Shown here: piece after piece, positions 8,132-48,030 of the stretch
Numbering within the stretch: position 1 is the stretch's first letter
How the letters are laid out: every line of letters begins with the position of its first letter
Source: Candidatus Onthovivens sp.
GTDB lineage: Bacteria; Bacillota_I; Bacilli_A; RFN20; CAG-826
Reading direction: 5' to 3'
DNA: 64,000 bases
NCBI GenBank assembly: GCA_048405595.1
Contig: DBFJOT010000010.1
Location: 71,578-135,577 of the forward strand
Notes under the pieces: generated by a model
Seen by the model: the letters and a program-made list of their open reading frames with translations, nothing else
What the model was told of the DNA's origin: nothing
Databases searched by the model: none
Made by a program: the position numbers and the translations under genes

Positions 8132-8482
8132 ATGAGAGTAAAAGGTGGAAAAGTAACACATTTAAGAAGAAAAAAAGTTTTAAAACAAGCTAAAGGTTAC
8201 TTCGGAAGTAAACATATCTTATTCAAAACAGCTAAAGAACAAGTAATGCGTTCAAAAAGATATGCTTATATCGATAGAAGAAGAATCAAGAGAGATTTCA
8301 GAAAACTTTGGATCAAGAGAATCAATGCTGCTTGCAGATTAAACGACATCTCCTATTCAAAATTTATGCACGGATTAAAGGTTGCTAAAATTGACTTAAA
8401 CAGAAAAATGTTAAGTGAAATCGCAATCCACGATGCAAGTGCATTTGCTGAATTAGTTAAATTAGCTAAAGAAGCTCAATAA
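8132..8482 (+). CDS. rplT: 50S ribosomal protein L20
   Basis: 116 aa ([25 protein letters not shown]...). Canonical operon position. Confidence 0.95.
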
Positions 8483-8492
8483 TTAACAAACT

Positions 8493-8517
8493 AACTACTC
8501 GAAAGAGTAGTTTTTTA
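8493..8517 (+). terminator. Rho-independent terminator after rplT
   Basis: AACTACTC-GAAA-GAGTAGTT hairpin followed by TTTTTT. Confidence 0.8.
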
Positions 8518-8626
8518 TTGCCTATATAAAGAAGATAAATTCTTTGAAATGTTACTTTTTAACTATACAAAAAGCGCCCTTCATCCTTTCTTATCTAGGG
8601 AGATTTATTTAGGCGCTTTTAATGTT

Positions 8627-9784
8627 TTATTTAATATATTTAACTTCCAAGTTATCTAAAGCTTCTTGAATTAATGGTTCAAAGTCAAATTTAGCTTCGA
8701 TACGTTGACATTCGTCTAAATGAGGAGCCGTTTTTGGCTTTACAGGAGCAAAAATCGTGCAGCAATCTTCAAATGGTCTAATTGAAATGTCATATGTTCC
8801 AATTTTTTCGCTAATTTTTATAATATCAACTTTATCATATGTACATAATGGTCTAAGTACAGCAATATTCGTGACTTCATTAATAACATTTAATGATTCG
8901 AGTGTTTGACTTGCGACTTGCCCGACACTTTCACCTGTCGCTAAACAAGGTAAATGTAATTTATTAGCAAGTCTAGTTGCAATTCTATACATCATTCTTC
9001 TCATGATGGTGATTGGATAGCCTTCACTAGAAATTTCATAGATTTTTTCTTGGATTTTAGTGAAAGGAACAATAAATAATCTAATCTTTGGTTGATATTT
9101 ATTTAATTGATGCAATAAATCCTCTAATTTATCGATGACACCACTATTTGTATATGGAGGTGATGCATAATGAATACAAGTAATTTCAATGCCTCTTCTC
9201 ATTAATAAATAAGTTGCAACAGGAGAATCAATGCCACCACTAATCATCATTAACGCTCTTCCAGTCGAACCACTTGGATAGCCACCTAAACCTTTAATAG
9301 TTTCAGTGAATAAATAAGCGCCATCTTCTCTAATTTCAATATCAAGTAAAGTATCTGGGTTATGAACATCAACTTTTTTATTTGTTGTTTTTAAAATTTC
9401 AGTTGCGATGGCTCTATTAATTTCATCACTAATAAAAGGATACGATTTATCAATTCTTCTAGTGCGAATCTTAAAAGTTTTTCCTTCACTTTCTTTAACA
9501 ATTCTAGTAGCTTCTGATAAAAGATTGTCATAATCTTGATCAATTTTTAATGATAAAGAGAATGAATACATTCCGCTAATATCTTTTAATATATCTACTA
9601 AGTTATAAATTTGATTTTTAATATTTAAATAAATATGATCATGTCTGATAATCATTTCATAGTCATCTTCATAATCACGAAGAGCTAATCTAATTGAATG
9701 AGCTAATTTAAAAACGAAATCTCTTTTATTTTTTCCTTTAGTCGACATTTCGCCAAATCTAACAATTACAACGTTGTATTCCAT
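8627..9784 (-). CDS. thiI: tRNA 4-thiouridine synthase ThiI (no rhodanese domain)
   Basis: 385 aa. N-terminal ferredoxin-like/THUMP-type region (VRFGEMSTKGKNKRDF) and PP-loop SGGIDSPVA. Immediately downstream of a cysteine desulfurase gene, as in Bacillus. Confidence 0.88.
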   Translation of the reverse strand: MEYNVVIVRFGEMSTKGKNKRDFVFKLAHSIRLALRDYEDDYEMIIRHDHIYLNIKNQIYNLVDILKDISGMYSFSLSLKIDQDYDNLLSEATRIVKESEGKTFKIRTRRIDKSYPFISDEINRAIATEILKTTNKKVDVHNPDTLLDIEIREDGAYLFTETIKGLGGYPSGSTGRALMMISGGIDSPVATYLLMRRGIEITCIHYASPPYTNSGVIDKLEDLLHQLNKYQPKIRLFIVPFTKIQEKIYEISSEGYPITIMRRMMYRIATRLANKLHLPCLATGESVGQVASQTLESLNVINEVTNIAVLRPLCTYDKVDIIKISEKIGTYDISIRPFEDCCTIFAPVKPKTAPHLDECQRIEAKFDFEPLIQEALDNLEVKYIK

Positions 9785-13893: not shown

Positions 13894-14997
13894 ATGAAAA
13901 AATTTATATTAGATCCAAAAAACACATTAACAAACGTAGGAAATTCAATTTTAGGTTTTTTTGATGTTCCTAAATTCCACGATTCCTTCGAAGCATTAGA
14001 TAAAATTTTAAAAGAGACCAACAAACAAAAAGTAGCATTAATTTTATTAGATGGTATGGGAAAAATTATTTTCGAAACTTACAAAGACGACATCCCTTAT
14101 CTTTATTCTCACATTTTAACAGAATATAAAAGCGTTTTTCCTCCTACCACTGTTGCTGCTACAACAACTTTAACAACAGGAAAATACCCAATTGAAACTT
14201 GTTATTTAGGTTGGACACAATATTTCGCTTCAAGAAAAGCTTTTATTAATGTCTTCCCTTCAAATAATCCTTTTAATCATAAAGAATTTTTCACACCTAA
14301 TGTTACTTCAACTGAATTAGCTACTACTTATATTTGGGATTTAATTAACAAAACGTTAAAGCATAACGCAGCTAATATTAGTAGTTTCTTCAAAAAAACT
14401 CCTGAAAAAGAAGATGACTTCGAAGCTTTCTTTAAAGATGCTGATAAATTAATAAAAGAACATGATTTCGTATATGTTTATTCAACAAATCCAGATCATC
14501 TTTTACATGTAAACGGAATTAAAAACGAAACCGTTAGAGAGAATGTTATTTATTTAGAAAAGAAAGTTAAAGAATTAGTAGAAAACAATAAAGACACTTT
14601 ATTTATTCTTACAGCTGATCATGGTTTTGCTGATATCGAAGAAATTAATTTTAAATTACATCAAGACTTTTTAGATACATTAAATGAAGATGTATTTTCA
14701 ATTGAACCTAGATTTGCGACTGTTTCTGTCAAAGACGAAGCGAAATTTTTAGAATTAGCCAACAAATATTATGGTGATTATTTCTATATCAAGACAAAAA
14801 AAGAGCTCCTTGAGGAGCATACTTTTGGATATGGAGTTCCAAACGAACTTTTTGATTCAACAACTAAAGATTACTTCTTAATTGCTAAAGATAAATATTG
14901 TTTTTATCAAAGCGATGAGCCAATTGGTTTTAAAGGAACTCACGCTGGTTGTTTAGATTCCGAAACTGAAATTTATTTATTAGTTTTTAACGCTTAA
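13894..14997 (+). CDS. Alkaline-phosphatase-superfamily phosphodiesterase / nucleotide pyrophosphatase-like protein
   Basis: Metal/nucleophile motifs LLDGMG, FPPTTVAATTTLTTGKYP, TADHGF and GTHAG. 367 aa. Confidence 0.65.
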   Translation: MKKFILDPKNTLTNVGNSILGFFDVPKFHDSFEALDKILKETNKQKVALILLDGMGKIIFETYKDDIPYLYSHILTEYKSVFPPTTVAATTTLTTGKYPIETCYLGWTQYFASRKAFINVFPSNNPFNHKEFFTPNVTSTELATTYIWDLINKTLKHNAANISSFFKKTPEKEDDFEAFFKDADKLIKEHDFVYVYSTNPDHLLHVNGIKNETVRENVIYLEKKVKELVENNKDTLFILTADHGFADIEEINFKLHQDFLDTLNEDVFSIEPRFATVSVKDEAKFLELANKYYGDYFYIKTKKELLEEHTFGYGVPNELFDSTTKDYFLIAKDKYCFYQSDEPIGFKGTHAGCLDSETEIYLLVFNA

Positions 14998-20978: not shown

Positions 20979-21056
<78 letters not shown>

Positions 21057-21073
21057 ATGTCGCTTTTGAGTTA

Positions 21074-21164
21074 TTGGCGGAGAAAGAGGGATTCGAACCC
21101 TCGCAGGACTTGCATCCTCTATCGGTTTTCAAGACCGACCCCTTCAGCCACTTGGGTATTTCTC
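21074..21164 (-). tRNA. tRNA-Ser (anticodon TGA)
   Basis: 91 nt with a long variable arm. Anticodon loop CT-TGA-AA, T-loop TTCGAAT, encoded CCA. Confidence 0.9.
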
Positions 21165-21168
21165 CATA

Positions 21169-21244
21169 TTGGTGGACTCTACAGGACTCGAACCTGTAAC
21201 CGATCGGTTATGGGCCGATAGCTCTAACCATTGCGCTAAGAGTC
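21169..21244 (-). tRNA. tRNA with CAT anticodon, probably tRNA-Ile2 (lysidine type) rather than elongator Met
   Basis: GGACTCT.../...AGAGTCC-A-CCA, anticodon loop CC-CAT-AA. It resembles Bacillus tRNA-Ile(CAU). Its position matches the conserved Ala-Met-Ile-Ser-fMet cluster order. Confidence 0.75.
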
Positions 21245-21280
21245 CACGTTTCGATTCTTTTAATTAACTCAATAATTTAA

Positions 21281-21357
21281 TTGGTAGCAGCGGGGGGACT
21301 CGAACCCTCGACGCACCGGGTATGAGCCGATTGCTCTAACCAACTGAGCTACGCTGC
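21281..21357 (-). tRNA. Elongator tRNA-Met (anticodon CAT)
   Basis: GGCAGCG acceptor, anticodon loop CT-CAT-AC, T-loop TTCGAGT, encoded CCA. Confidence 0.8.
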
Positions 21358-21372
21358 CGAATAATTTAATAA

Positions 21373-21446
21373 ATGGTGGACCCTAGGAGAATCGAACTCC
21401 TAATCCAAGCTTGCAAAGCTAGTGTTATCCCATTTAACTAAGGGCC
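21373..21446 (-). tRNA. tRNA-Ala (anticodon TGC)
   Basis: Acceptor GGGCCCT with the G3:U70 identity pair, anticodon loop TT-TGC-AA, T-loop TTCGATT, encoded CCA. Confidence 0.88.
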
Positions 21447-21478
21447 CATCTGTTGTGCACTCTTAAAAGCGCTCATTA

Positions 21479-34447: not shown

Positions 34448-34656
34448 GTTTATTCCTCCTTTGAATTAAAAAACGTCCTTAAAACAAATTGTCTAAGGAC
34501 GCAATATTTACGCGGTACCACCTTAGTTCATTCAAATGAATGCACTTAATTTAGTATTTTATTAAATTCGATGTGAGACTTTAAGAACGATGTACTAGTT
34601 TTCACCAACCACTAGCTCTCTAAAACATGAATCTTAAATTATTCATCTACAATATT
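34448..34656 (-). promoter_or_regulatory. T-box riboswitch leader (Leu) controlling leuS
   Basis: On the minus strand: Stem I AG-bay AGAGAG with distal loop GGTTGGTGAAA, T-box sequence GGTGGTACCGCG (34522-34511), and terminator CGTCCTTA...TAAGGACG (34501-34474) followed by TTTTTT. A candidate CUU specifier followed by A lies at 34585-34583. Confidence 0.8.
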
Positions 34657-36090
34657 CTACAAGCAACTTTTATAAAGTTCAACGTATTCTAATGCTGAAG
34701 TTCTCCAGCTATGATCGCAAGTAATTGCATTAAGAACTAAACGATCAAATTCACGTTGTTTGTAGTTATAAAGAATTAAGGATTGAGCAGCAACTGTAAT
34801 TGCATCAACTACAGAATAGTTATCAAATCCAAAACCATCAGCAACATCACTGTTATCACGAGCGAAGTTATATGGTTTAACACTATCTTTTAATCCACCA
34901 GTTCTTCTAACGATTGGTAAAGTACCATAACGTTGAGCAATCATTTGACCTAATCCACATGGTTCAAATGCACTAGGCATAATAAAGAAATCACTAGCAA
35001 CATAATATTTATGAGCTAATTCATTGTTATATCCGATATAAATTTTGCATGTGTCAGGATATCTTTGATAAAGATTGTTGAACCAATCTTCAGCCCATTT
35101 ATCACCACTTCCTAAAAGACAGAAAATTCCACCGCTAGAAAGGATAAATTCAGCCATTGCCATGATTAAATCTAAACCTTTTTGGTCTGTTAATCTTGAG
35201 ACAACACTATAAATTGGTTTTTCTGGATCGAGTTTGAATTCTTTACAGAAAGCAACTTTATTAGCTCTTTTGCCTTGTTTTCTGTTTCTGTTATTAAATT
35301 TTACGTAAATGTAAGGATCTTTACAGTGGTTGAATTCTTTATAATCCATACCATTAATGATTCCTTTGAAGTCGTTTCTTCTTAAAGTTAAATCATACCA
35401 AAGACCTTTACTCCCTTCTGGAGTTAAAAGTTCTTCAGCGTGAGTTGGAGAAACTGTTGTAATTCTATTAGCGTAACGAATTCCAGCTTTTAATGTTGAA
35501 ACAGCGTTATCGAGTCTAACATATCCCTTTTCATATAAGCTATAATCTAATTCATATAAGTCATATAAACTTTCTGGATTAAAGTAGCCTTTAAATAATG
35601 GATTATGAATTGTTAAAATAGTTTTAACGTTTCCAAGTTTTTCATCCCATTCATATTTAGTTCTTAATAAGCAAGGTAACATTGCTGTTTGCCAATCATG
35701 AACATGTAAAATATCGATTTTTGATGAGTAGCGTTTCATAAATTCGATGACTGCTAAATTGAAGAAAGCAAATCTTTCTCCGTCATCAAAATAACCATAT
35801 AATCCACCATTTCTTCTAAAATAATAATCATTACCAACAAAGTAATAATCAATATTATCGTGAACTAAGTGTAAAATATCAGCCTTTATATGTCTCCAGT
35901 TCATTTTGACATCAATGCTATAAAGATATTTTACTTTATATTTTCTATCGAGTTCGTTATAGAAAGGGACAATTACTGAAACGTGATTGTCCATTTTTGC
36001 TAACTCACTACTTAAAGCGTAGCTAACATCTCCTAATCCACCTGTCTTAGAAAATGGTAAGCATTCGCTAGTTGCCATTAAAATTTCCAT
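34657..36090 (-). CDS. glgA: Glycogen synthase (ADP-glucose type)
   Basis: N-terminal ECLPFSKTGGLGDV motif and a GT5 C-terminal domain. I prefer the ATG at 36090, one nt after the glgD stop. The ORF-track extension overlaps glgD. Confidence 0.9.
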   Translation of the reverse strand: MEILMATSECLPFSKTGGLGDVSYALSSELAKMDNHVSVIVPFYNELDRKYKVKYLYSIDVKMNWRHIKADILHLVHDNIDYYFVGNDYYFRRNGGLYGYFDDGERFAFFNLAVIEFMKRYSSKIDILHVHDWQTAMLPCLLRTKYEWDEKLGNVKTILTIHNPLFKGYFNPESLYDLYELDYSLYEKGYVRLDNAVSTLKAGIRYANRITTVSPTHAEELLTPEGSKGLWYDLTLRRNDFKGIINGMDYKEFNHCKDPYIYVKFNNRNRKQGKRANKVAFCKEFKLDPEKPIYSVVSRLTDQKGLDLIMAMAEFILSSGGIFCLLGSGDKWAEDWFNNLYQRYPDTCKIYIGYNNELAHKYYVASDFFIMPSAFEPCGLGQMIAQRYGTLPIVRRTGGLKDSVKPYNFARDNSDVADGFGFDNYSVVDAITVAAQSLILYNYKQREFDRLVLNAITCDHSWRTSALEYVELYKSCL

Positions 36091-36091
36091 G

Positions 36092-37207
36092 TTATACATT
36101 AACTCCACGTGGGAAGTATAAAGGTGTTTCTTCAGTACCTTCCACATCTTTCTTTGATTTAAATACGACACGTTTGTCACAAACTACATTCTTTAAATGT
36201 ACACCAGTTTTTACAACTGAGTGAGTGAAAAGAATGCAATTTTCAACAACAGCACCTTCTTCAATAGTAACATCACGTGAGATGATTGAATTTTTAACAA
36301 TTCCATCAATTTTAGCTCCATTAGCTACGATTGAAGATGTAACTTTTGAATTTGGACCATATAAGACTGGTCTTGAGTTATGTGTCGTTGTGTAGAATGT
36401 CCATTCTGGATCATTTAAAAATTCCATTAATAATTCAGGACGACGGACAAATTCTAAGCTATTTTTAAAATATGATTCTAGAGAATTAACTAAAACGACT
36501 TCTCCTTCATATTTAATTGCGTGAATTTTACTAACATATTTAATGCAATATGTAAGTAATTCAGCAATTGAATAGCCTACTGAAATACTATCACTTAAAG
36601 AAAGTAATTCTTTAAGGAAAGCTTTATCAATAACTAAAACATTAATAGAAACTTCACATTCTCTATCATCGTTTGAAGTATATATTTTTTGAATATCACC
36701 TAAACTATCGATAGTGAATTTTTGAGCTAATGGATAATCATTTCCATTTTCAACGTGCATATAAAGTAATGATGCAAGTCTACCGCTCTCTTTATGTTCT
36801 TTCAAGATTTTTCTATAATCTACTTTTTTAACAAATGAAGGGTCACAAATTACAACATATTTAATTTTGTCATCATATAAGAAATAGTCATTTCCTTTGA
36901 TGTTATTTAAATCAGTGTTGTAAATTGGATTTAAAATGCCTTTTTCATTAATAAATAATGATAAAAAGCCTGTTTTAGGATTTGATAAATAAGCATTTGG
37001 GTTTGAAATATGCTTATTAATGCTATTTGGATGGTCTTTGACTAATACGCCAATATTATCAATTCCACTATTTGAGAAGTTTGATAAAGCGAAATCGATA
37101 AAAGCATATCTAGCTAAGAAAGTTGTTGATGCTAAAGGACGATCTTTCGTAAGTAAACCTAAAGTATTTGGTGAATATAAATCAATTAAAGCGACTACAT
37201 CGTTCAT
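36092..37207 (-). CDS. glgD: Glucose-1-phosphate adenylyltransferase, regulatory GlgD subunit
   Basis: 371 aa and GlgC-like, but it lacks the GGxGxRL motif. A left-handed beta-helix C-terminus is present. It lies between glgC and glgA, as in Firmicutes. Confidence 0.8.
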   Translation of the reverse strand: MNDVVALIDLYSPNTLGLLTKDRPLASTTFLARYAFIDFALSNFSNSGIDNIGVLVKDHPNSINKHISNPNAYLSNPKTGFLSLFINEKGILNPIYNTDLNNIKGNDYFLYDDKIKYVVICDPSFVKKVDYRKILKEHKESGRLASLLYMHVENGNDYPLAQKFTIDSLGDIQKIYTSNDDRECEVSINVLVIDKAFLKELLSLSDSISVGYSIAELLTYCIKYVSKIHAIKYEGEVVLVNSLESYFKNSLEFVRRPELLMEFLNDPEWTFYTTTHNSRPVLYGPNSKVTSSIVANGAKIDGIVKNSIISRDVTIEEGAVVENCILFTHSVVKTGVHLKNVVCDKRVVFKSKKDVEGTEETPLYFPRGVNV

Positions 37208-38340
37208 TTTTGAAGGCTCCTTTCATAATCGATTAAGACAACTGTGTCTTTATCTTTGTTAATTTCTTCACCGTCCTTAATTTGTGTTTTAGGACCGATA
37301 ATCGCATTATTAACGATAGCTTTTTTGCCAATTCTCACGCCTGGCATGATAACTGAACGATTAACTTGAGCGCCTTCTTCAATAATTACTTCATTTGAAA
37401 TAACTGATTGAGTGACTTTGCCTTTAATGATTGCACCTTGATTGATTAATGAGTCAGTAACAACTGCTTTTGGACCAATAAATTGAGGACTTGAATGGGT
37501 ATCTTCGCTATAAACTGTAGGATATTCATCAAAATTAATTGTTTCTTCAGTTCTATTTGAAGGTAATAATTCCATATTTGCCATATGTAAACTATCTAAA
37601 GTACCAACATCTCTCCAATATCCATGGAATCTATAAGCAAATAATTTTTTCTTATCACCAAGCATCATTGGGATAATATTTTTACCAAAGTCGTGTTCAC
37701 TCTTTGGATCTTTTCTATCTGCAATTAATGCTTTTCTTAAATCTTTATATGTAAATACATAAACACCCATTGAAGCTAAGTTGCTCTTTGGTTCTTTTGG
37801 TTTTTCAACGAATTTAGTAATTTGATCATTTTCATCGACTTCTAAAATACCAAATCTTGAAGCTTCTGCCCAATCAACTTCTAAAACGCTGATTGTACAT
37901 GTAGCTTTGTTTTTAATATGTAAATCGACCATTTCGTTGTAACTTGTTTTATAAATGTGATCGCCACTTAAAATTAAAACATATTCTGGATCTTCTTCAT
38001 CGAGAAAATCTAAGTTTTGATAAATAGCATCGGCGGTACCTTCATACCAGTTAGCACCTTCTTCTGTTTGTCTTGGTGGAAGAGTCGAACATTTTCCATT
38101 TACTCCATCGAATCCCCAAGTACTTCCATTACCAATATAATTATTTAAAGCGACAGATTCATATTGTGTTAAAACACCACAACATTCAATGTCACTATTG
38201 GCAACATTTGATAGTGAAAAGTCTATAATACGATACTTTCCGCCAAAATAAACTGCTGGTTTAGCAATCTTCTTTGTCAAAGCGTGAAGACGTGTGCCTT
38301 TACCTCCGGCAAGAATCATTGCAATAACTTTCCTAGCCAT
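37204..38340 (-). CDS. glgC: Glucose-1-phosphate adenylyltransferase
   Basis: ILAGGKGTRL motif, PAVYFGGKYRIIDF and an LbH C-terminus. 378 aa. SD GGAGGG upstream. Confidence 0.93.
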   Translation of the reverse strand: MARKVIAMILAGGKGTRLHALTKKIAKPAVYFGGKYRIIDFSLSNVANSDIECCGVLTQYESVALNNYIGNGSTWGFDGVNGKCSTLPPRQTEEGANWYEGTADAIYQNLDFLDEEDPEYVLILSGDHIYKTSYNEMVDLHIKNKATCTISVLEVDWAEASRFGILEVDENDQITKFVEKPKEPKSNLASMGVYVFTYKDLRKALIADRKDPKSEHDFGKNIIPMMLGDKKKLFAYRFHGYWRDVGTLDSLHMANMELLPSNRTEETINFDEYPTVYSEDTHSSPQFIGPKAVVTDSLINQGAIIKGKVTQSVISNEVIIEEGAQVNRSVIMPGVRIGKKAIVNNAIIGPKTQIKDGEEINKDKDTVVLIDYERSLQK

Positions 38341-38379
38341 AATTCCCTCCTAATTTATATTTAATTTATTTTGAGTAAG

Positions 38380-41300
38380 TTAATTTGTTTCAGTTGCTTT
38401 TGTGTCTTTTTCAAATAAGCCAACGCAGCTTCTGTTCTTATCTCTTAAAACAATTAAAGTTTCGTCTACTAAAGGAGAAATATCTGGGACTTTATCGCTT
38501 GGAGCACTAAGAATGACTTGTAAGTTGAATTTCTTAAGAAGTCTGATAGCTTCTGTCATTCTGTTTTTGTCCATCTTTGAGAAAGCTTCATCAAAGATAA
38601 TTAAACGAACTGTGTTTCCGAGTTCCCCTTCGTTATTAATGTGATATAGTTGAGCAAATGATGCGAGGACTGAAATGTAGAAAGGAGTTTGAGTTTCGCC
38701 TCCACTCTTTTTCTTAATCATCTTCGATAATCTTTGTTCATCACCAGTATCTTTATTGTAAACAATTAAGTCAAAATCTAAATAGCTACGATAGTCAGTG
38801 AATTTTCTAACATTTTCTTCTAATAAGCTGTGCTTATTGCCATCACCAACATCAACGATTTGTCTAAAGAGTTCTTCCATGACATCTTTATATTTTTCAA
38901 TAAATGCAGAATCATCTTTTCCAGTTTCAAGAATGGAATCATCTTTTAACATATCATAATATCTACGATAAAGTTGAGATGGTCTAACTGTGAAACGGTA
39001 TAAATCTTTTCCGAAACTTGATTGTTTAAGAGCTAAATTAAGATTATCAATTTGATCTTCAACATCCCCGATAGCTTCTCTTAAACTAAAGATGAAGTCA
39101 TCCTTGAATTGTTTAGTAGCTTTTTCGTAAGAGTCTTGAATTTTTTCACGATATTCAGGGAGTTTAACATCTCTAAATTCAACGAGTTCATCATAGAATC
39201 TCTTATTATCGTCAGTTTCAGCATCATAACTTAGATGGTAATCTTGTAAATATTCTCTTCTAAGTTTGATAAGTTGATTTTTCATGTTGTTTACTAAGTA
39301 TTGTAAACGTGAGAATTCAACATTTGCTTCTTGGAAAATTTCAAATACACGTTTTCCTTCGTCGAGTTTTTGATTAAATAAAGGTAATGCAATTTCGTTA
39401 ACGATTTTTGGATCGTAGCTTGTGTTAATTGAATCTTCTTTTGATTTGGCAATTTTTTGTTCATCAACGATTTTTTCATTAACAATTGCTTCGTTATCTT
39501 TAATAAGGTTACCCTTTTCTAAGATTAAACGATCTTTTAATTCGTGAATGTTTGCGATATCGCTTTCAACATCTTTTAATCTATTATCTAATGATTCACC
39601 TAAAGCAGTTCCAGAATTTGCGAGTTCATGCTCGATATAGTCATAATTATTTCTTAATCCTGGTAAATCACTAATACCACTTAATAATCTAAATATATTC
39701 TCGATTTCAGTTAATGTAAATACTTCAAGACGATTTACTTCGTCAATCGAGTGTTTTACTCTACGAATGTATTCAATATTACTTGAAAGTTGATTAAGTT
39801 GTTTTGTTTTTTGATCAATAAATCTATTATCAACATTTCTTCCAATGAAACTATCTTGGAATAAACGTGGATTAATTCTTGATGTAGCAAAGTTTCTATA
39901 AACATCGCATTCTTTTGTGATACCATTTCCGCTTCTTCTAGCTTCATCTGGATCGCTTGATTTATGTAAACGACCAATTAAGAAATTGGTGTAAGCTCTT
40001 GCTCCTTCATGATCTGTAACGATTTCTTCAGCGAGTGAGCCACTATCACATTTAAAGTCTCTTTCGATGATTTTTTCTTGGTCGACAAGGGCTGTTCCAT
40101 AATAATTAAAATCATTTAAGAGTTTTCTTAAAATTTTATATGCTGCACTATAATATTTTGGTGCAACGAATAAATTGAATTTTTGTGAGAATAAGAATCC
40201 TTCAATTGCATTTGACCAACTTAAGTCATTAATATCGATTAAATCAGCATAAATTGAAACTTCAATTTTCTTATCAAATTGTCTTGCAAGTTCGTCTTCT
40301 AAACGCTTTTTAATAATAACAAGTCGAGGTTCATAAGGTTTAGTTCCTTTTTTCATCTCAACTTCTTGAGTTCTTAAGTCTCTAACATTCTTTTCTAAAT
40401 TTTGAATGCTTTTACCTAAAGTTGCTGATAAATTAGAGGCGGAATTTTTAAAAATTAATAATGCATCTCTGAATTCATTTAAGTTATCTTTATCTAATTT
40501 AGAAATATCACTTAAATATTTTTCTCTAAATGAAATTGTTGTGTGTTTGATATCTTTTGCGTTTTCAACAAGTTCTTGAATATCATTAAAGTTATCTTCA
40601 CCTAAAATTTCTTCATTTAAAGAAGAGAAATTTGTACAAATAAGTTCACTTGCTTCATAGAAAGCGTTGATATATCTATTTAAAGAATTTCTTACAGAGT
40701 CAATATTTGAATTAATCAAGTTAATTTTATTGACGATATCTTTTTTATCTTTCTTTAAGTCTTCGGTCATTCTAAATGTATCATTACTTGCTTTGTCCAT
40801 AATGATATTATTTTTCTTTCTTTCGAAGTCTTCTAAGTTAGATTGGAATTCCTTAAGTTCGTTATCGATTTCAGAAATACGTTTATTATTTCTTTCGATT
40901 TGTTTATTTAAATTTCTAAGCTTGTCATAACTTTGTTCAAGTTGACATCTTTCTAAAATATATCTTGTGACAGTTAAATTTGTCTTTTGAGTTGAATAAT
41001 GTGAATAAGCTTCTTCGATTTCTTCAAGACGTTTAACTCTCTTTTCGATATTTAATGCTTCGATTTCAAGTCTCTTATATTGAGAAATGTTATCTTGTAA
41101 CGTAGCAATGTTGATATTTTTTTGAGGATCACAAACATAATCTGTAATAAATTCTGTGATGTTTGAAATTGGTGAGAATGAAGTTGCACGTTTGAATAAA
41201 TCAAAATAACGTTGTTTTAATCCACCAAATTTACGTTTTAAGAATTCTTGATAAAGTTTATTTGTATCAAAGAATTGATAACTTCCTTTTTCATAATTTG

Positions 41301-41769
41301 CAGCAAAGTATTTTGTGAGTGTTTTATATTCCATTGGAATATTATTTTCTACAAATTCATTTTGAGGAATTTTTGATTCTAAATAGAAGAAATGGTGATC
41401 ATTACTTCCATCATCAAATGTATCAAATACTACACCCATTACGAAATCGTTGTTATTTAAATCGTCATGATATTCTAAAGCGATATAGCTTGTGAATCTT
41501 CCATTACGTAAATATTTAAATCCACCATCTGCTGTATCACCAAGTTCTCCACGTAAATATCCTGATAAAGTACGAGCACTTTTTTCACTAGCAGCTTTAT
41601 TGAAGAAATTTCCTGAAGTATTTCCTAAAAGTACAACTTGGAGAGCGTCAATTAAAGTAGATTTACCACTACCATTAAGACCTGTTAAAAAGACAATAGG
41701 TTTAATATCGAAAGTTTCATTCCAAAAATAATGCCAGTTAATAATTTTAACCTTAGTTAAGAGTTTCAT
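38380..41769 (-). CDS. SMC-like ATPase of the JetC/MksB type
   Basis: 1129 aa. N-terminal head IINWHYF...FLTGLNGSGKSTLIDALQVVLLG (Walker A). About 800 aa of coiled-coil-type sequence with a central globular hinge-like segment (ADLIDINDLSWSNAIEGFLF...). C-terminal signature SGGETQ, Walker B LIIFDEAFSKMD and D-loop. The start overlaps the upstream gene by 17 nt. Confidence 0.8.
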   Translation of the reverse strand: MKLLTKVKIINWHYFWNETFDIKPIVFLTGLNGSGKSTLIDALQVVLLGNTSGNFFNKAASEKSARTLSGYLRGELGDTADGGFKYLRNGRFTSYIALEYHDDLNNNDFVMGVVFDTFDDGSNDHHFFYLESKIPQNEFVENNIPMEYKTLTKYFAANYEKGSYQFFDTNKLYQEFLKRKFGGLKQRYFDLFKRATSFSPISNITEFITDYVCDPQKNINIATLQDNISQYKRLEIEALNIEKRVKRLEEIEEAYSHYSTQKTNLTVTRYILERCQLEQSYDKLRNLNKQIERNNKRISEIDNELKEFQSNLEDFERKKNNIIMDKASNDTFRMTEDLKKDKKDIVNKINLINSNIDSVRNSLNRYINAFYEASELICTNFSSLNEEILGEDNFNDIQELVENAKDIKHTTISFREKYLSDISKLDKDNLNEFRDALLIFKNSASNLSATLGKSIQNLEKNVRDLRTQEVEMKKGTKPYEPRLVIIKKRLEDELARQFDKKIEVSIYADLIDINDLSWSNAIEGFLFSQKFNLFVAPKYYSAAYKILRKLLNDFNYYGTALVDQEKIIERDFKCDSGSLAEEIVTDHEGARAYTNFLIGRLHKSSDPDEARRSGNGITKECDVYRNFATSRINPRLFQDSFIGRNVDNRFIDQKTKQLNQLSSNIEYIRRVKHSIDEVNRLEVFTLTEIENIFRLLSGISDLPGLRNNYDYIEHELANSGTALGESLDNRLKDVESDIANIHELKDRLILEKGNLIKDNEAIVNEKIVDEQKIAKSKEDSINTSYDPKIVNEIALPLFNQKLDEGKRVFEIFQEANVEFSRLQYLVNNMKNQLIKLRREYLQDYHLSYDAETDDNKRFYDELVEFRDVKLPEYREKIQDSYEKATKQFKDDFIFSLREAIGDVEDQIDNLNLALKQSSFGKDLYRFTVRPSQLYRRYYDMLKDDSILETGKDDSAFIEKYKDVMEELFRQIVDVGDGNKHSLLEENVRKFTDYRSYLDFDLIVYNKDTGDEQRLSKMIKKKSGGETQTPFYISVLASFAQLYHINNEGELGNTVRLIIFDEAFSKMDKNRMTEAIRLLKKFNLQVILSAPSDKVPDISPLVDETLIVLRDKNRSCVGLFEKDTKATETN

Positions 41770-42403
41770 TGAATAGATCCTCCTTATTTGCTTCTTGAGC
41801 TTTTAATTGATCAAGTGCGTTTGACATTGCGACTATCTTGTCATTATCAACTGCATAAACGATCGAAGGTAAAATATAAAACGAAACATTTCCTTCATCG
41901 TAACTACCACTAACTTTAGAGATGATGTTGTGGTTTGCTAAAAATCTTAATGAGCGAGCAAGCCCTCTGCCTGTGAAGTTTTTATTTTGAAGACGAATTC
42001 CGTCATCTTTCATTAATTTTAAAAGCCCAGGAGTTGTTAAATAAATTGCTTGAGTTGTTGTATTTGATTCGTTTTTTTCGTTTTCATAAATCAGTCTTAA
42101 GGTAAATAAAACTAAACTTGTTTCTCTATCTAATCTAATTCTATTTTCGCAATTGATATTTGTTAAAGCGACAACACCTAAAACATAATCTTTTTCTACT
42201 AACCAACCTGAATATTTTAAATATTCGTTGATAATATCAAAATATCTTTCAATATATCGATAATCAGGATTTATACGAATGATTTTTTCTTTTGTATCAA
42301 AGACATCACGAACAATAAATCCTTTGAGTAATAATTTATTAATAACTGTTGAGAATTCTGATTGATCGCTAGCTGGCATTTTTAAAAATTCTTCACTAAA
42401 CAT
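41753..42403 (-). CDS. JetB/MksE-like (DUF4194-type) small subunit
   Basis: 216 aa, in the middle position of the trio. Patterns VINKLLLKGFIVRD, YLKYSGWLVEKDYVLGVVALTN and RETSLVLFTLRLIYE resemble the DUF4194/MukE-like family as I recall it. Confidence 0.6.
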   Translation of the reverse strand: MFSEEFLKMPASDQSEFSTVINKLLLKGFIVRDVFDTKEKIIRINPDYRYIERYFDIINEYLKYSGWLVEKDYVLGVVALTNINCENRIRLDRETSLVLFTLRLIYENEKNESNTTTQAIYLTTPGLLKLMKDDGIRLQNKNFTGRGLARSLRFLANHNIISKVSGSYDEGNVSFYILPSIVYAVDNDKIVAMSNALDQLKAQEANKEDLFNETLN

Positions 42404-42406
42404 ACT

Positions 42407-43888
42407 CTACTCCTTTCTGATAAATCTAAAATTAGGAACAATATATCCGTAAGTATGGATTCTAGATTTATCAACTTGTTCTACATAATAGAAACAATTT
42501 TCTTCGTCTTTTTTGATGACTGCTAAAATAAGGCAAATTAAGGCATCAAAATTAACAAGTGGTATTTCTTCTACACCAATTTCATCAGCTCCACCGAAAG
42601 CTTCTTCCATAAATTCATAAACTTTTTCATCAGTGAAAATTGTATTTGTTTGATCAAGGAAGTTACTCATTAAGAAGTCGGTCGCATCTTCAAATGATAC
42701 AAGTTCCATAGGAACGCCATCTTCTTTAATTTTTCTAAGAATTGGTAATGTGATTGAGTCACTATTAATATAACCTTGTTCATAGAAATATAAGGAGTCT
42801 TGCATTTTAGATAAAACTGTTTTGACATCTTTTAAATTTCCACTATTCATGTTCTTAGCATAGAACTTCATAATGTTTTCAAGATACCCCTTGATTGTCT
42901 TATCGTTGTTATTAAGATAAAGAATTTTGTTAGCACTACTCTTTGTGTAAGAGTTGTTTTCTTTATCAATGTTAGCGATTGTTGTGTTAAGTTTTTCGTA
43001 AGTATCCGTAATGAAATTAATTTTTTCAATAACGTCTTGCTCAAGAGTTTTTCTATCTGTTGTTGGGAACATAAGCATAGCTTGAGCAATAAGCTTTGTT
43101 CTAATTTCATTAGTGTTAAGCCAATTATCTAAAATTTTAATAATTGGGCGTTTAAATTTCGTGACACTATCGAAAGTTTTAAGTGGGTGATAATATCTAT
43201 CACTGATTTTGTTTTTATAAACATCAAAGTAGTCATGTAAGACTTTATTAGTATCAAAAAGTTTTGATAATCTGTTTTGGAAGATTCTAATTGAGTGACT
43301 AATAGTAATAAGTTCGACTTTGAGTTTTTTCGTTGTTTCATAACAACGTGATAAAGTTCCATACATTAAGTCATCTTGTTCTTCATCTTCGAGTTTAAGT
43401 TCGCTATAAGTTGAATGAACATAGCCAATATAAGGACTTTCTTCATCTGAGATGATATCTTTAAAAGCTTTTAGTATTAGGATTGAATATTGAGGTAAGA
43501 TGATGCCCTCCTCGAAAGTCTCAGGGTCCATCATAATATCAATCCAACCAGTTTCTTCTAATCTTTTAACGATAAAAGAACTTTTTCCACTTGGAGTATT
43601 AGAAAGTAAAGCATCTTCTTGAGTTGCATCAACTTCTTCATCCTCGTAAGTAAATTGTTCTAATTCTTTAGATCTCTCCTTTAAGGTCTTAACAAAATCA
43701 TTCTTTTTGATAAAAGATTCTTCACTTTCAAGTAGGTTAAATAACACTAATAAACTATCAAGATATATTGCACGATTCTTTCCTTGAAATAGTGCAAAAT
43801 AATTTTCTGGAATGATATTAAATAAGTTCATAATTATACTTAAAAAGTATATCATTTTTTTGCGCATTCTTAAATAAATAAATGGCAA
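42407..43888 (-). CDS. JetA/MksF-like (kleisin-type) subunit candidate
   Basis: 493 aa, first gene of the trio, 3 nt upstream of the DUF4194-like gene. Size and position match DUF3375/JetA. The start is ambiguous: TTG at 43888 (AAGGA 5-6 nt upstream) or ATG at 43831 (MNLFNIIPENYF...). Confidence 0.5.
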   Translation of the reverse strand: MPFIYLRMRKKMIYFLSIIMNLFNIIPENYFALFQGKNRAIYLDSLLVLFNLLESEESFIKKNDFVKTLKERSKELEQFTYEDEEVDATQEDALLSNTPSGKSSFIVKRLEETGWIDIMMDPETFEEGIILPQYSILILKAFKDIISDEESPYIGYVHSTYSELKLEDEEQDDLMYGTLSRCYETTKKLKVELITISHSIRIFQNRLSKLFDTNKVLHDYFDVYKNKISDRYYHPLKTFDSVTKFKRPIIKILDNWLNTNEIRTKLIAQAMLMFPTTDRKTLEQDVIEKINFITDTYEKLNTTIANIDKENNSYTKSSANKILYLNNNDKTIKGYLENIMKFYAKNMNSGNLKDVKTVLSKMQDSLYFYEQGYINSDSITLPILRKIKEDGVPMELVSFEDATDFLMSNFLDQTNTIFTDEKVYEFMEEAFGGADEIGVEEIPLVNFDALICLILAVIKKDEENCFYYVEQVDKSRIHTYGYIVPNFRFIRKE

Positions 43889-44041
43889 TTTTTTCCTTAA
43901 AAATCATCAAATTTAAGCACTTTTTTTCACCTACATTAAAATTATAATTTTAATATGTCATTTTTATGCGTTTTGATCACCTTAAAGCACTCAAGGAAAC
44001 AAAATTTGCAATCTTAAAGTTACTCAATTATAATTTTGCTT

Positions 44042-44524
44042 ATGAACGAAAAACGTATTTATCCATCAAAAAAATCAATTATAAAAACATCAATAATTTT
44101 TTCTTTAATTTTGCTTGTTGTCATGTATGGAATTTTCTCTTCAAGATTTTCATGGGCATACATCACAGATAAAGATATAGCTCCTTACATAATTCAAGAT
44201 GTTGTTGTTATTATTGCTTGGTTAGCTGTTTCACTTATTTCAACATTTGTACTTTTAAATAAAAATTATTATACAGTTACTAAATCATGTTTCATCCATC
44301 ATAAATTAGGTAAGGAAGTTAGTTACTCATTTGATAACATTCTTTACATCGATGATTATTATTCATCAAAGCATGATACAATTTTATTCTACATGAACAC
44401 TGGTAAATCAGTTTTCATTGTTCAAGATAAAGAAAAAACACTTTTGCCACTATTTCAAAAAGAAGCTAAAAATGTTATTTCTCGTGAAGCTTTTCATGCA
44501 AAATTCCCAAACATTAAACTTTAA
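44042..44524 (+). CDS. Small membrane protein with two TM helices and a possible bacterial PH-like (bPH/YdbS-like) domain
   Basis: MNEKRIYPSKK..., two hydrophobic helices, then NYYTVTKSCFIHHKLGKEVSYSFDNILYID. The architecture resembles bPH_2 proteins. Weak call. Confidence 0.35.
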   Translation: MNEKRIYPSKKSIIKTSIIFSLILLVVMYGIFSSRFSWAYITDKDIAPYIIQDVVVIIAWLAVSLISTFVLLNKNYYTVTKSCFIHHKLGKEVSYSFDNILYIDDYYSSKHDTILFYMNTGKSVFIVQDKEKTLLPLFQKEAKNVISREAFHAKFPNIKL

Positions 44525-44955: not shown

Positions 44956-44957
44956 TG

Positions 44958-44988
44958 AAAAGCTTCCGACAATGCGGAAGCTTTTTTC
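44958..44988 (+). terminator. Bidirectional rho-independent terminator after rpmB
   Basis: AAAGCTTCCG-ACAATG-CGGAAGCTTT followed by TTTT. It also lies directly 3' of the convergent gene ending at 44995. Confidence 0.85.
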
Positions 44989-46394: not shown

Positions 46395-47282
46395 TTAATT
46401 CCTACTTAATCCAAATAACTTAACAAAGAAATTTGTTTTCTTTTTAACTAACTTTCTATTTTTATATAAAGATAAAATATCTCTTCTTAAATCGCTTACA
46501 GTTTTATAGCGATCATAAAGTTCTTTTGCAGTAGCTTTTTGGATGATTTTATCTACTTCTTTTGGCAATGTTGGTATGACTGAAAGTACACTAGGCATAT
46601 CATCATTGACTTGCATATAGGCAACATCACTCGCTTTTTTGCCATCAAAAGGAACTTGACCGGTTAAAAGTTCATAAAAAGTTATTCCAGCAGCATAAAT
46701 GTCACTTTGAAATGAGCACTTTTTTCCATAAACGAGTTCAGGAGCTAAATATTGAACTGTGCCCATAACTTTTTTGTTTTCGTTTACGTTTAAAGGTGAA
46801 TTAAGTAAAACACTGATTCCAAAATCACTTAATTTAATTGTTCCATCGCTTCCATAATAAATATTTTGAGGTTTAATATCTCTATGAATGATATTTTTTG
46901 AATGAACCTCAATCATTGCATCACATAATTGAAGCATGATTTGACAAGCTTCATTAAGTGTTAAATTCTTTTTATAGTTTAAAGTATCTCTTAAAGTTTG
47001 AGATTTCATATATTCGTTTACGATATAAGGTAAATTATTATGTTCGCCATAATCATAAATTTTGACAATATTATGATGAGAAAAAGCAGCTGAAAATCTC
47101 GCTTCATTTTGGAAGCGAATTAAATTTTCAATTTTATTAGCTTGATCAAACTTAATGATTTTTATAGCCACAGTTCTTTTAAAAATAATGTCTCTGGCTT
47201 CAAAAACATCACTCATTCCGCCATGACCTAATTCGCTAATAATTTTATATCTATCTCCAACGAAATCATTAATTCTAATCAT
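46395..47282 (-). CDS. prkC: Hanks-type Ser/Thr protein kinase (PrkC-like), kinase domain only
   Basis: GHGGMSDVFEA glycine loop, VAIK lysine, HRDIKPQN catalytic loop, DFG, APE. I prefer the ATG at 47282, which overlaps the prpC stop by 8 nt. No TM segment or PASTA repeats follow the kinase domain. Confidence 0.85.
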   Translation of the reverse strand: MIRINDFVGDRYKIISELGHGGMSDVFEARDIIFKRTVAIKIIKFDQANKIENLIRFQNEARFSAAFSHHNIVKIYDYGEHNNLPYIVNEYMKSQTLRDTLNYKKNLTLNEACQIMLQLCDAMIEVHSKNIIHRDIKPQNIYYGSDGTIKLSDFGISVLLNSPLNVNENKKVMGTVQYLAPELVYGKKCSFQSDIYAAGITFYELLTGQVPFDGKKASDVAYMQVNDDMPSVLSVIPTLPKEVDKIIQKATAKELYDRYKTVSDLRRDILSLYKNRKLVKKKTNFFVKLFGLSRN

Positions 47283-48030
47283 TGAAAGACTCCCATAAGG
47301 CGATTGACATATTGTCAGTACCACCATTGTAGTTGCCTAAATTAATAATTGACTCAACTTTTTCTTCGGTGTTAAGTTTTGTTTTTAATACATTTAGAAT
47401 ATCTTTTTCACTAACGTTATTATAAATTCCATCACTACAAAGCAAAACAGTTTCTCCACTATATTTATAAATTTTTACATCTAAACTAAGTGAAGGGAAA
47501 AGACCAATTGCGTTAGTTAAAACGTGTCTTTCTGGATGAACAATCGCTTGTTCTTCATTAATTTGTCCACTTTTAAGTAAAAAATTAACATAAGTTTGGT
47601 CTTCACTTAATTGAACCAATTCATTATTTTTAACCCAATAAGTGCGACTATCGCCACAATTTATAACAACTAATTTATTTTTATAAATAAAAGCAAGTGC
47701 AAGAGTTGTTCCCATGCCTTTATACATAGGATCCTCATCTTGAACACGATAAATTTTACTATTTGCAACTTTTAAAATTCTTTTAAGGAAACCAACAGCA
47801 TTAAATAGACCAAAAAAGCCTTTTTTATCTTTAAAAGCTTGTGAAATGATATTGATAGTTTCTTTAGAGGCATAATCACCTTTATTGTGACCTCCCATTC
47901 CATCAGCAACTAAAAGGAGTACGTTTCCGCTACTATCGACGAGAGCTTTTGTTTCGTCTTCGTTAGCAATACGTACTTTACCAATATCCTTCTTGGCGCT
48001 AAATCTACCATTAAATTTCTTTGTGCTCAT
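47275..48030 (-). CDS. prpC: PP2C-family Ser/Thr phosphatase (PrpC/Stp-like)
   Basis: NEDE, ADGMGGH and CSDG motifs. 251 aa. Paired with the kinase gene. Confidence 0.88.
   Translation of the reverse strand: MSTKKFNGRFSAKKDIGKVRIANEDETKALVDSSGNVLLLVADGMGGHNKGDYASKETINIISQAFKDKKGFFGLFNAVGFLKRILKVANSKIYRVQDEDPMYKGMGTTLALAFIYKNKLVVINCGDSRTYWVKNNELVQLSEDQTYVNFLLKSGQINEEQAIVHPERHVLTNAIGLFPSLSLDVKIYKYSGETVLLCSDGIYNNVSEKDILNVLKTKLNTEEKVESIINLGNYNGGTDNMSIALWESFND

Follow-up and report, generated by a model that had tools for sequence, protein, structure and literature searches.

A jetD-less type I Wadjet operon at a fixed housekeeping position in a lineage of small-genome Bacilli

The window that was analyzed, a stretch of 64,000 nucleotides from a Candidatus Onthovivens genome, contains an operon that, judged by its profile matches, is a type I Wadjet system encoding JetA, JetB and JetC and lacking jetD. 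The operon is shared by a lineage of uncultured, AT-rich Bacilli with small genomes (~1.1-1.5 Mb), whose named relatives include 'Coprobacillus sp. CAG:826', 'Candidatus Onthovivens' and MAGs that carry the label 'Mollicutes' or 'Tenericutes'. Within this lineage jetABC is a vertically inherited fixture at a fixed housekeeping position, and its genes are under strong purifying selection, like leuS. On balance, we consider it probable that the operon encodes a functional complex, which lost JetD before the radiation of the lineage and now serves as a nuclease-free extruder of chromosomal loops.

Gene organization and family identity

The genes jetA, jetB and jetC constitute a translationally coupled trio on the minus strand, with a gap of 3 nt between the first two and an overlap of 17 nt between the last two (Table 1), as had been described in an earlier note on this DNA. 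The protein lengths given in that note were 493, 216 and 1129 aa, of which the latter two were confirmed. The mechanical call for jetA (ORF 42407-43888, minus strand) indeed yields 493 aa from a TTG, but it is over-extended by 19 codons. Alignment of 74 homologues showed that the JetA N-terminus reads MNLF, MKLF or MSLF in all relatives, which places the conserved start at the ATG of position 43831 and yields a protein of 474 aa. The gene that follows is glgC, which starts 39 nt past the jetC stop, as the note had said. The first terminator-like site on the minus strand downstream of jetC is found only after glgA (34502-34473), and glgCDA are probably co-transcribed with jetABC from a promoter upstream of jetA. 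In the putative promoter region, either strand carries hexamers that resemble promoter elements, but only as matches to the consensus. Divergent from jetA lies a conserved gene for a 162-aa membrane protein, located upstream of rpmB and on the same strand. This protein had no family match in PADLOC or Pfam and was judged a syntenic neighbor and not a partner or effector of JetABC. The GC content is even over the window (~29%) and no flanking repeats above chance expectation were detected at jetABC, in agreement with what had been noted before. On the basis of these two observations and the conserved synteny described below, a mobile-element insertion was rejected.

Table 1. Features of the jetABC locus (positions within the window)
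Feature	Position	Strand	Basis
jetA, kleisin, 474 aa (conserved ATG start)	42407..43831	-	PF18982, PADLOC JetA1, homologue alignment
jetB, KITE subunit, MukE-like, 216 aa	41753..42403	-	Pfam DUF4194, PADLOC JetB1
jetC, SMC-family ATPase, 1129 aa	38380..41769	-	PADLOC JetC1 PDLC00519, Pfam AAA_29, SbcC_Walker_B
JetC Walker A, GLNGSGKST, residues 30-38	41656..41682	-	translation
JetC head loop, ETGKDDSAF, residues 948-956, candidate 'larynx' region	38902..38928	-	loop comparison, lineage versus outgroup
JetC ABC signature motif, SGGETQ, residues 1022-1027	38689..38706	-	translation
JetC Walker B, LIIFDE, residues 1056-1061	38587..38604	-	translation
Spacer between jetC and glgC, containing only a ribosome-binding site (AGGAGGG), terminator absent	38341..38379	-	sequence and terminator scan
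glgC, glgD, glgA	34657..38340	-	Pfam NTP_transferase, Glyco_transf_5; jetC adjacency kept throughout the lineage
Terminator-like hairpin following glgA, where the transcription unit probably ends	34473..34502	-	terminator scan
Intergenic region between jetA and the divergent gene for the 162-aa membrane protein, probably with the jetABC promoter	43832..44035	.	promoter-like hexamers

All three proteins matched type I Wadjet profiles far beyond chance, which corroborates the JetABC/MksFEB-type identity proposed earlier. JetA proved to be a member of PF18982/DUF5716 (Pfam 1.3e-86) and not of DUF3375, as had been supposed; it covered positions 1-461 of the 464 in PADLOC JetA1 (2.3e-113). The assignment of JetB to DUF4194 was correct (Pfam 9.6e-16; PADLOC JetB1 3.3e-63). 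JetC scored 1096 bits against PADLOC JetC1 (PDLC00519), with residues 1-1126 on profile positions 1-1092 of 1097, and matched Pfam AAA_29 (1.5e-17) and SbcC_Walker_B (8.8e-26). Its significant sequence matches in the PDB were solved JetC structures only, and the match to Pfam MukB was restricted to a short N-terminal part (residues 7-59, 2.3e-05). A Smc-ScpAB identity of the trio was rejected: JetC reached only 19 bits against SMC_N, under the 40-bit cut-off, it showed no Pfam match to SMC_hinge, and its partners are JetA and JetB instead of ScpA and ScpB. No extra domains were found fused to any of the three proteins, the lengths of which fit the profiles.

Absence of jetD

To search for JetD, the JetD1 protein of the nearest complete system was used as query in tblastn. 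No match was obtained in the window, in the flanks on the source contig (~94 kb of contig in all) or in 78 related species-level loci with flanks of up to 10 kb around jetC. The same query recovered JetD in outgroup loci with 38-44% identity (E 1e-77 to 1e-121). In addition, PADLOC matched the other window ORFs of 100 aa or more (n = 52) to 49 families, and JetD did not occur among the 25 of these that were listed; ORFs without a known function, in the window as well as in the contig flanks, lacked JetD matches in both PADLOC and Pfam. The earlier statement that no ORF in the window looks like JetD therefore stands. A hidden or divergent JetD close by was rejected on the basis of these negative searches and the lack of fused domains in JetA, JetB and JetC. 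The jetABC-glgC arrangement was present on 4 contigs from 3 samples and is thus not a misassembly that hides an adjacent jetD, an option that the earlier note had raised.

The nearest JetD-bearing relatives are Clostridia JetABCD operons (L080, L089-L091), which sit among defence-type genes. The JetC of the window shares 39% identity with its counterpart in the closest JetD-bearing system that was found. In all relatives examined that carry jetD, this gene follows immediately after jetC, as it also does in a published operon table (PMC7617805 Data S1).

Conservation within the lineage

The gene order rlmN-PP2C-pknB-rpe-(rpmB)-jetABC-glgCDA-leuS is kept in most of 78 species-level genomes, and jetC and glgC are adjacent in around 70. 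Syntenic and co-diverging jetABC genes were recovered from at least 76 species-level genomes. The identity between JetC sequences correlates with that between LeuS (r = 0.90), PknB (0.93) and GlgD (0.93) sequences, and the median identities of the Jet proteins (57-63%) are those of GlgA and Rpe. In a neighbor-joining tree the JetC sequences of the lineage (n = 76) are monophyletic. The dN/dS values were 0.024 for JetA, 0.018 for JetB and 0.049 for JetC, as compared to 0.036 for leuS and 0.052 for rlmN. The sporadic distribution and defence-island context that are typical of Wadjet were not observed for jetABC here, and the synteny, co-divergence and purifying selection support the earlier view of a resident core locus. 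Given these three observations, the loss of the nuclease appears to be old and fixed, and neither an artefact nor the mark of a decaying remnant.

JetC motifs and candidate JetD-contact surfaces

The Walker A, signature and Walker B motifs of JetC were found as stated before, and are conserved in 13 diverse homologues (56-81% identity). Within this set G30, N32 and S34-T38 of Walker A, the entire SGGETQ signature, and L1056, I1057, F1059, D1060 and E1061 of Walker B are invariant.

In E. coli JetC the so-called 'larynx' region is the docking site of JetD, with F919 as docking residue. The candidate counterpart is a head loop with an acidic consensus, G-[EK]-D-[DE]-S, in the 76 JetC sequences of the lineage, where JetC of the outgroups has G-[YFH]-x-[ILV]-x-S. 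The nearby F956 is kept in 73 of the 76 sequences as well as in outgroup JetC. The position of F919 itself depends on the method: phmmer placed it at K951/D952 and hhalign at F956 (probability 6-18%), and these answers conflict. Neither a C-terminal JetC fragment nor a family profile could be usefully aligned with solved structures across the F919 region. F956 might be the equivalent of F919, an assignment in which we have low confidence. In JetB, the lineage and JetD-bearing L080 both retain an N-terminal helix, MFxE[ED]F; the literature predicts binding of this helix to the aCAP domain of JetD. Two features that are tied to JetD contact elsewhere, the JetB helix and the putative F919 equivalent, therefore persist in the lineage.

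Possible function of JetABC

Our analysis points to a nuclease-free, MksBEF/MukBEF-like loop extruder on the chromosome as the most likely function. After the loss of JetD, which would have preceded the radiation of the lineage, JetABC would no longer be able to cleave DNA. It would still be an ATP-driven loop extruder, which may load on and fold the host's own chromosome and thereby fulfil a condensin-like role in nucleoid organization or segregation. That the complex probably acts on the chromosome of its host follows from the fact that the nuclease-less trio is strongly conserved and vertically inherited lineage-wide. Purified JetABC without JetD hydrolyzes ATP and extrudes DNA loops (PMC10889018), and the nuclease is also missing from MukBEF (PMC7617805). 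An origin from JetABCD-like ancestors by nuclease loss has been proposed for MukBEF as well as for Pseudomonas MksBEF (for the latter in PMC10586767). The earlier note had offered three options: a nuclease-less Mks-type condensin, a Wadjet derivative with an unlinked or novel effector, and a DNA-sensing module repurposed for something else. The first is best supported, the other two less so.

An alternative is that restriction of plasmids or small circular DNA persists by means of a nuclease encoded elsewhere. This could be a JetD from an unlinked gene, or an effector without homology to JetD that uses the same docking surfaces. The retention of the JetB N-terminal helix in a lineage without JetD fits such a scenario, as does that of F956, and the search for JetD covered ~94 kb of the source contig and 10 kb on either side in relatives. 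However, F956 may be merely structural and the loop next to it, hydrophobic in the outgroups, has become acidic in the lineage. Moreover, jetD lies directly after jetC wherever the two were seen together, both in the relatives and in the published table, and fixed synteny, co-divergence and dN/dS values of 0.02-0.05 in at least 76 species would be unusual for a defence system. We therefore regard a nuclease encoded elsewhere as unlikely. It is also conceivable that JetABC acts on extrachromosomal DNA without cleavage: complete loop extrusion would sense small circles, which are then compacted, silenced or mis-segregated, comparable to the way in which Smc5/6 silences viral episomes. This would account for all Wadjet-type features being kept; without JetD, JetABC still extrudes circular DNA in vitro and stalls on it (PMC10889018), and SMC-based restriction without cleavage is known in eukaryotes (reviewed in PMC10586767). 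Nevertheless, the literature consulted offered no precedent in bacteria, Wadjet plasmid restriction requires JetD wherever tested (PMC10586767; PMC10889018), and the core-gene behavior of jetABC better suits a housekeeping role, which makes a cleavage-free restriction distinctly improbable. Finally, the bare absence of jetD could by itself indicate that a defence remnant is decaying since jetD was recently deleted, or that jetD was split off artificially during assembly or binning. This reading is refuted, and has hardly any probability left, considering that the jetC-glgC junction, with 31-42 nt in between, recurs in independent assemblies, the adjacency is conserved, the ATPase motifs are intact and purifying selection is strong.

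Relation to known systems

The JetABC loop extruder proposed here shares its protein families (JetA PF18982/DUF5716, JetB DUF4194 and JetC), gene order and translational coupling with type I Wadjet of E. coli GF4-3 and Bacillus cereus Q1. These systems include JetD and typically reside in defence islands, whereas the operon of the lineage has no jetD gene, is fixed and vertically inherited in a housekeeping context, and encodes an acidic instead of a hydrophobic loop beside the putative JetD-docking Phe. The absence of a flanking MksG/JetD gene, the stable vertical inheritance and the purifying selection are what characterizes the nuclease-less, MksBEF/MukBEF-like members of the Wadjet group. 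MksBEF of Pseudomonas aeruginosa and mycobacterial MksB likewise combine a kleisin, a KITE protein and an SMC without MksG/JetD. For P. aeruginosa MksBEF, descent from JetABCD by nuclease loss and action on the chromosome have been proposed (PMC10586767), but its host belongs to another phylum, has a genome of ~6 Mb in comparison to the ~1.1-1.5 Mb here, and also possesses Smc-ScpAB. MukBEF, found in Enterobacteria and their relatives, is described as a nuclease-less member of the Wadjet/Mks group, encoded by a core, vertically inherited operon, that folds the chromosome (PMC7617805). It is highly diverged from JetABC, has replaced Smc-ScpAB and has MatP and topoisomerase IV as partners. As the best matches of the trio are all type I Wadjet profiles, the nuclease was probably lost independently of MksBEF and MukBEF, from an ancestor that is still clearly type I Wadjet.

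Nuclease-less operons of the Wadjet group are already known, and the novelty of the arrangement had been overstated before. Buermann et al. 2025 (Cell; PMC7617805) map the loss of JetD across the group, several other members of which also lack the nuclease according to that paper, and the loss of JetD/MksG is documented in its Fig. S1A and Data S1 and in PMC10586767. Data S1 lists JAFLUZ010000005.1 ('Erysipelotrichales bacterium') as an 'FEB' operon, which is our locus L041 and falls in the same clade as the jetABC described here; Anaeroplasma bactoclasticum and several 'Tenericutes bacterium' MAGs are among its other 'FEB' entries. As it stands in Data S1 this is a catalogue entry, to which the present analysis adds the lineage-wide synteny, co-divergence, selection and contrast with defence islands. 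The arrangement is thus common in close relatives, as had been considered in the earlier note; a study that characterizes it in the lineage was not found in the literature.

Smc-ScpAB in the lineage

A motif scan of all retrieved loci for smc, rnc, ftsY and parB gave no matches. When metagenomes were scanned with an AT-codon pattern for the SMC Walker A, at least 120 loci were obtained, and the matches listed included a family of short SMC proteins of 977-979 aa (L136, L213 and L214) on AT-rich gut contigs. TrpS and GlyA encoded beside these smc genes are 64-66% identical to those of the lineage, and for that reason the lineage may well keep Smc. No contig or accession common to this SMC family and a jetABC genome was found. 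GlyA and TrpS genes also occur near jetA in L047 and L023, but this coincidence can be expected by chance and the positions differ from those beside smc. Papers on the RFN20 order and on the genomics of Tenericutes yielded nothing on SMC. It seems doubtful that a JetABC of type I Wadjet descent has replaced Smc-ScpAB as the sole SMC complex in this lineage of wall-less gut Bacilli. If it has, a 'MukBEF-like' takeover would have happened for the second time, independently of the first and much later, with its origin in plasmid defence still legible in the sequences. If Smc-ScpAB is present, the occurrence of a second condensin in a genome of ~1.1 Mb needs explaining.

Implications

It has been proposed among SMC researchers that MukBEF and MksBEF descend from Wadjet-like plasmid defence via loss of the nuclease, but the known examples are too diverged for the transition to be traced. 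Here it is recent enough to be read: the proteins score as canonical type I JetA, JetB and JetC and have close JetD-bearing relatives in defence islands, yet jetABC already behaves as a housekeeping cluster throughout the lineage. Comparison of JetD-less and JetD-bearing proteins shows which surfaces were altered on nuclease loss, like the head loop by the putative docking Phe. The small genomes of the lineage would provide a clean setting for a nuclease-free Wadjet motor in vivo, and if Smc-ScpAB is absent from the lineage, the case would become considerably more important.

Identity and organization of the jetABC operon

The three coupled minus-strand genes that the earlier note had read from the sequence were all recovered as open reading frames with the spacing it gave (see the table). 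JetA matched the Pfam family PF18982 (1.3e-86) and the PADLOC profile JetA1 (2.3e-113), JetB matched DUF4194 (9.6e-16) and JetB1 (3.3e-63), and JetC matched AAA_29 and SbcC_Walker_B in Pfam and JetC1 in PADLOC (1096 bits). Since the three proteins span their profiles end to end, the system belongs to Wadjet type I. The identification as JetA, JetB and JetC made earlier therefore stands, except that JetA had been placed in DUF3375, the family of other Wadjet types. The length of JetA, taken to be 493 aa, also needs correction, as an alignment of 74 JetA homologues points to a conserved start (MNLF...). JetC indeed carries the claimed Walker A (GLNGSGKST, residues 30-38), signature (SGGETQ, 1022-1027) and Walker B (LIIFDE, 1056-1061) motifs, and all three are unchanged across 13 homologues of 56-81% identity. 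Among solved structures, the sole significant sequence matches were distant JetC chains of E. coli and P. aeruginosa (E 1e-16 to 1e-10). The identical arrangement was present on 4 contigs from 3 samples, and the GC content is even over the whole window (~29%), in line with the earlier remark that the base composition resembles that of the neighbours.

Features of the window (by our own arithmetic, window position w corresponds to w + 33380 on the matching 103-kb ENA metagenome contig)
Feature	Position	Strand	Remark
Metallo-beta-lactamase-fold protein	4345-5115	+	
PglZ-like protein	13894-14997	+	
tRNA cluster	20980-21447	-	Met x3, Ser, Ala
Terminator-like hairpin	34502-34473		after glgA
glgA	34657-36180	-	mechanical ORF; GTG start, 89-nt overlap with glgD
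jetC	38380-41769	-	1129 aa; overlaps jetB by 17 nt
JetC head loop	38902-38928		residues 948-956; acidic in the lineage, hydrophobic in the outgroup
jetB	41753-42403	-	3-nt gap after jetA
jetA	42407-43888	-	mechanical ORF; conserved start at ATG 43831, giving 474 aa
Probable promoter region	43832-44035		
162-aa protein	44036-44524	+	
Terminator-like hairpin	44957-44986		upstream, beyond rpmB
PknB-type Ser/Thr kinase	46395-47327	-	

The next gene is glgC, as noted before, and the 39-nt spacer that follows the jetC stop holds a ribosome-binding site alone. No terminator-like sites were detected from jetA through glgA and hairpins lie outside this stretch, which suggests that jetABC and glgCDA are probably transcribed as one operon, with the promoter just upstream of jetA. 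The true start of glgA should lie near 36090, because glgA was called as a 477-aa gene on the source contig. In most genomes of the lineage, jetA has a divergent neighbour that encodes a 162-aa protein (24-57% identity), for which two membrane helices are predicted near the N-terminus and no family was matched; this gene precedes rpmB and shares its strand.

Absence of JetD

The nearest complete system recovered was that of an Acetivibrionales MAG (L080; JetC 39% identical), in which a 414-aa JetD1 is encoded immediately 3' of jetC (PADLOC 1.5e-123). Used as a tblastn query, this JetD gave no match at E < 2 in the window or in 78 related loci. The same query detected JetD in three outgroup loci (38-44% identity, E 1e-77 to 1e-121), and the search was therefore sensitive enough. 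Among the unannotated ORFs, neither PADLOC nor Pfam identified a JetD, which bears out the earlier statement that no ORF of the window resembles JetD. When the source contig was extended, by 10 kb on its left side and with a 146-kb contig that carries the same genes on its right, no JetD, SMC or ScpAB came to light. The rest of the window is of a housekeeping nature, including ATP synthase, aminoacyl-tRNA synthetases, EzrA, L20/L35/IF3, PriA, RlmN, a PP2C/PknB pair, Rpe and glgCDA.

A search with the L080 JetC recovered Clostridia-type homologues. In three of those checked (Geosporobacter, Thermovenabulum and one 4.3-Mb genome), a JetD_C gene (PF09983) lies directly 3' of jetC, and the neighbours include MNT/HEPN pairs, a STAND-like ATPase and PLD/helicase genes. 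The JetD of one of the nearest relatives, L089, is encoded at 8410-9651. In contrast to these JetD-bearing operons with defence-type neighbours, the jetABC operon of the window lacks jetD and sits among housekeeping genes. The fourth one checked, L092 (5001-8360; ENA ERZ24773415, BRZ_KQ NODE_694, 74 kb), is a separate, unrelated JetD-less jetABC operon, with a JetC 44% identical to that of L080, a convergent next gene and trkA/trkH, truA and ecf genes in its context. As its JetC retains the hydrophobic G-Y-S-V in the head loop, it may represent a more recent loss of the nuclease.

Conservation across the lineage

Scanning a JetC alignment against the GTDB representatives, one genome per species, resulted in 79 loci, in 78 of which JetC is 48-82% identical to that of the window. 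These are MAGs labelled 'Bacilli bacterium', 'Mollicutes', 'Tenericutes', 'Candidatus Onthovivens', 'Coprobacillus sp. CAG:826' or 'Erysipelotrichales', although several bin names are evidently wrong. CAG-826 is a family in the uncultured order RFN20, for which peptidoglycan is predicted to be absent (PMC10868615). The window presumably comes from this order or from a group near it. Some relatives are assembled as single contigs of 1.07-1.48 Mb, and the genomes are thus small. Single contigs that represent near-complete genomes of the lineage include ENA ERZ2606006 NODE_12 (1,082,334 bp), JGI 3300017643 Ga0183097_10006 (1,072,845 bp) and GenBank JAKVOO010000001.1 (1,481,977 bp).

Most of the 78 loci keep the order rlmN-PP2C-pknB-rpe-(membrane protein)-(rpmB, 162-aa membrane protein)-jetA-jetB-jetC-glgC-glgD-glgA-leuS, in which the jetC-glgC junction is nearly universal. 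LeuS (r = 0.90), PknB (0.93), GlgD (0.93) and RlmN (0.85) all correlate with JetC in their identity to the window, and the median identities of JetA (59%), JetB (63%) and JetC (57%) compare with 57% for GlgA, 56% for Rpe, 49% for PknB and 76% for LeuS. Relative to the close relative L085 (JetC 94% identical), dN/dS was 0.024 for jetA, 0.018 for jetB and 0.049 for jetC, and 0.036, 0.015 and 0.052 for leuS, glgC and rlmN, respectively. Judged from these sequence comparisons, jetABC is constrained as much as housekeeping genes. Moreover, 76 full-length JetC sequences of the lineage form a single clade in a neighbour-joining tree. Synteny, co-divergence, dN/dS and the single clade together imply vertical inheritance of a jetD-less jetABC that predates the diversification of the lineage, and the view of a resident core locus was well founded.

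Candidate JetD-docking surface

In E. coli, the aCAP domain of JetD binds the 'larynx' of the JetC head via F919, the F919E change abolishes restriction, and the N-terminal helix of JetB is predicted to bind aCAP (bioRxiv 10.1101/2023.11.03.565488). Residue F919 aligns to K951/D952 of the window JetC by phmmer and, with low probability, to F956 by hhalign. F956 is a Phe in 73 of the 76 lineage sequences and in every outgroup JetC. As the five residues preceding it, all JetD-less members of the lineage carry an acidic G-[EK]-D-[DE]-S; the corresponding loop of the outgroup is the hydrophobic G-[YFH]-x-[ILV]-x-S, also in the four JetC proteins with a verified jetD. The loop is possibly the docking region of the JetD aCAP domain, and the MFxE[ED]F helix at the JetB N-terminus is kept in both lineage and outgroup. 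With the region remodelled and the Phe nevertheless kept, the picture is ambiguous.

Other features of the window and its relatives

The lone PglZ-like protein belongs to the alkaline phosphatase superfamily (Pfam Phosphodiest 8.4e-17; PglZ weakly, 9.8e-06) and has no BREX or other partner genes close by. The metallo-beta-lactamase-fold protein, in chromosomal housekeeping surroundings, has precomputed Pfam matches that include anti-Pycsar Apyc1 (PF23023). The PknB-type kinase (~295-310 aa) has a PP2C phosphatase as its partner; it shows Pfam matches to kinase domains only and is too short for PASTA repeats, which is consistent with a wall-less lineage. Stop codon usage in the genes of the window (TAA 39, TAG 14, TGA 2) indicates the standard code, although the genome is Mollicute-like. 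In the relative L087 (1.08-Mb contig), a Methylase_S - phage-type integrase - Methylase_S array (50-1922) lies ~6-8 kb upstream of jetA and resembles a specificity shufflon of a type I restriction system.

A family of unusually short SMC proteins (977-979 aa) was found on AT-rich gut metagenome contigs (L136 368-3301, L213 10001-12940, L214 10001-12934), in the orders glyA-x-trpS-smc or frr-smc...ftsY-ylxM-ffh. TrpS and GlyA of these loci are 64-66% identical to genes of members of the jetABC lineage (L023, L047), and the family may represent the Smc of this lineage itself or of a sister group.

Proposed function of a JetABC complex without nuclease

Purified JetABC shows ATP hydrolysis and DNA loop extrusion in the absence of JetD, and cleavage requires JetD (PMC10889018), and for MukBEF and MksBEF a past as defence systems has been proposed (PMC10586767). 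At the window locus, the kleisin, KITE and SMC subunits are all encoded, the ATPase motifs are intact and no nuclease gene is present in cis. From this combination we infer, with slightly better than even confidence, that jetABC encodes a nuclease-free loop extruder that would work on the cell's own chromosome, and a nuclease-less Mks-type condensin is the favoured reading among those offered earlier. An unlinked or novel nuclease, outside the reach of the JetD searches around jetABC, might serve the complex instead; this we consider unlikely. A cleavage-free action on small circular DNA, by an operon that has housekeeping neighbours, appears more doubtful still, and that genes so constrained would be a remnant or artefact is highly improbable. 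Whether the chromosomal loop extruder would be a MukBEF-like takeover or an ordinary second SMC complex hinges on the coexistence of Smc-ScpAB, and the takeover seems unlikely.

Operons of this kind are already known. The operon table of Buermann et al. lists many 'FEB' operons, including those of Anaeroplasma bactoclasticum and 'Tenericutes bacterium' MAGs, as well as JAFLUZ010000005.1, a member of the window's clade (our locus L041; PMC7617805). The arrangement is therefore catalogued, and common among the relatives, but a paper on its lineage-wide conservation or on the role of the complex there was not found in the literature. The novelty is accordingly modest, and lies in the evidence for jetABC as a fixed core locus across a whole small-genome lineage, in which its type I origin can still be recognised.
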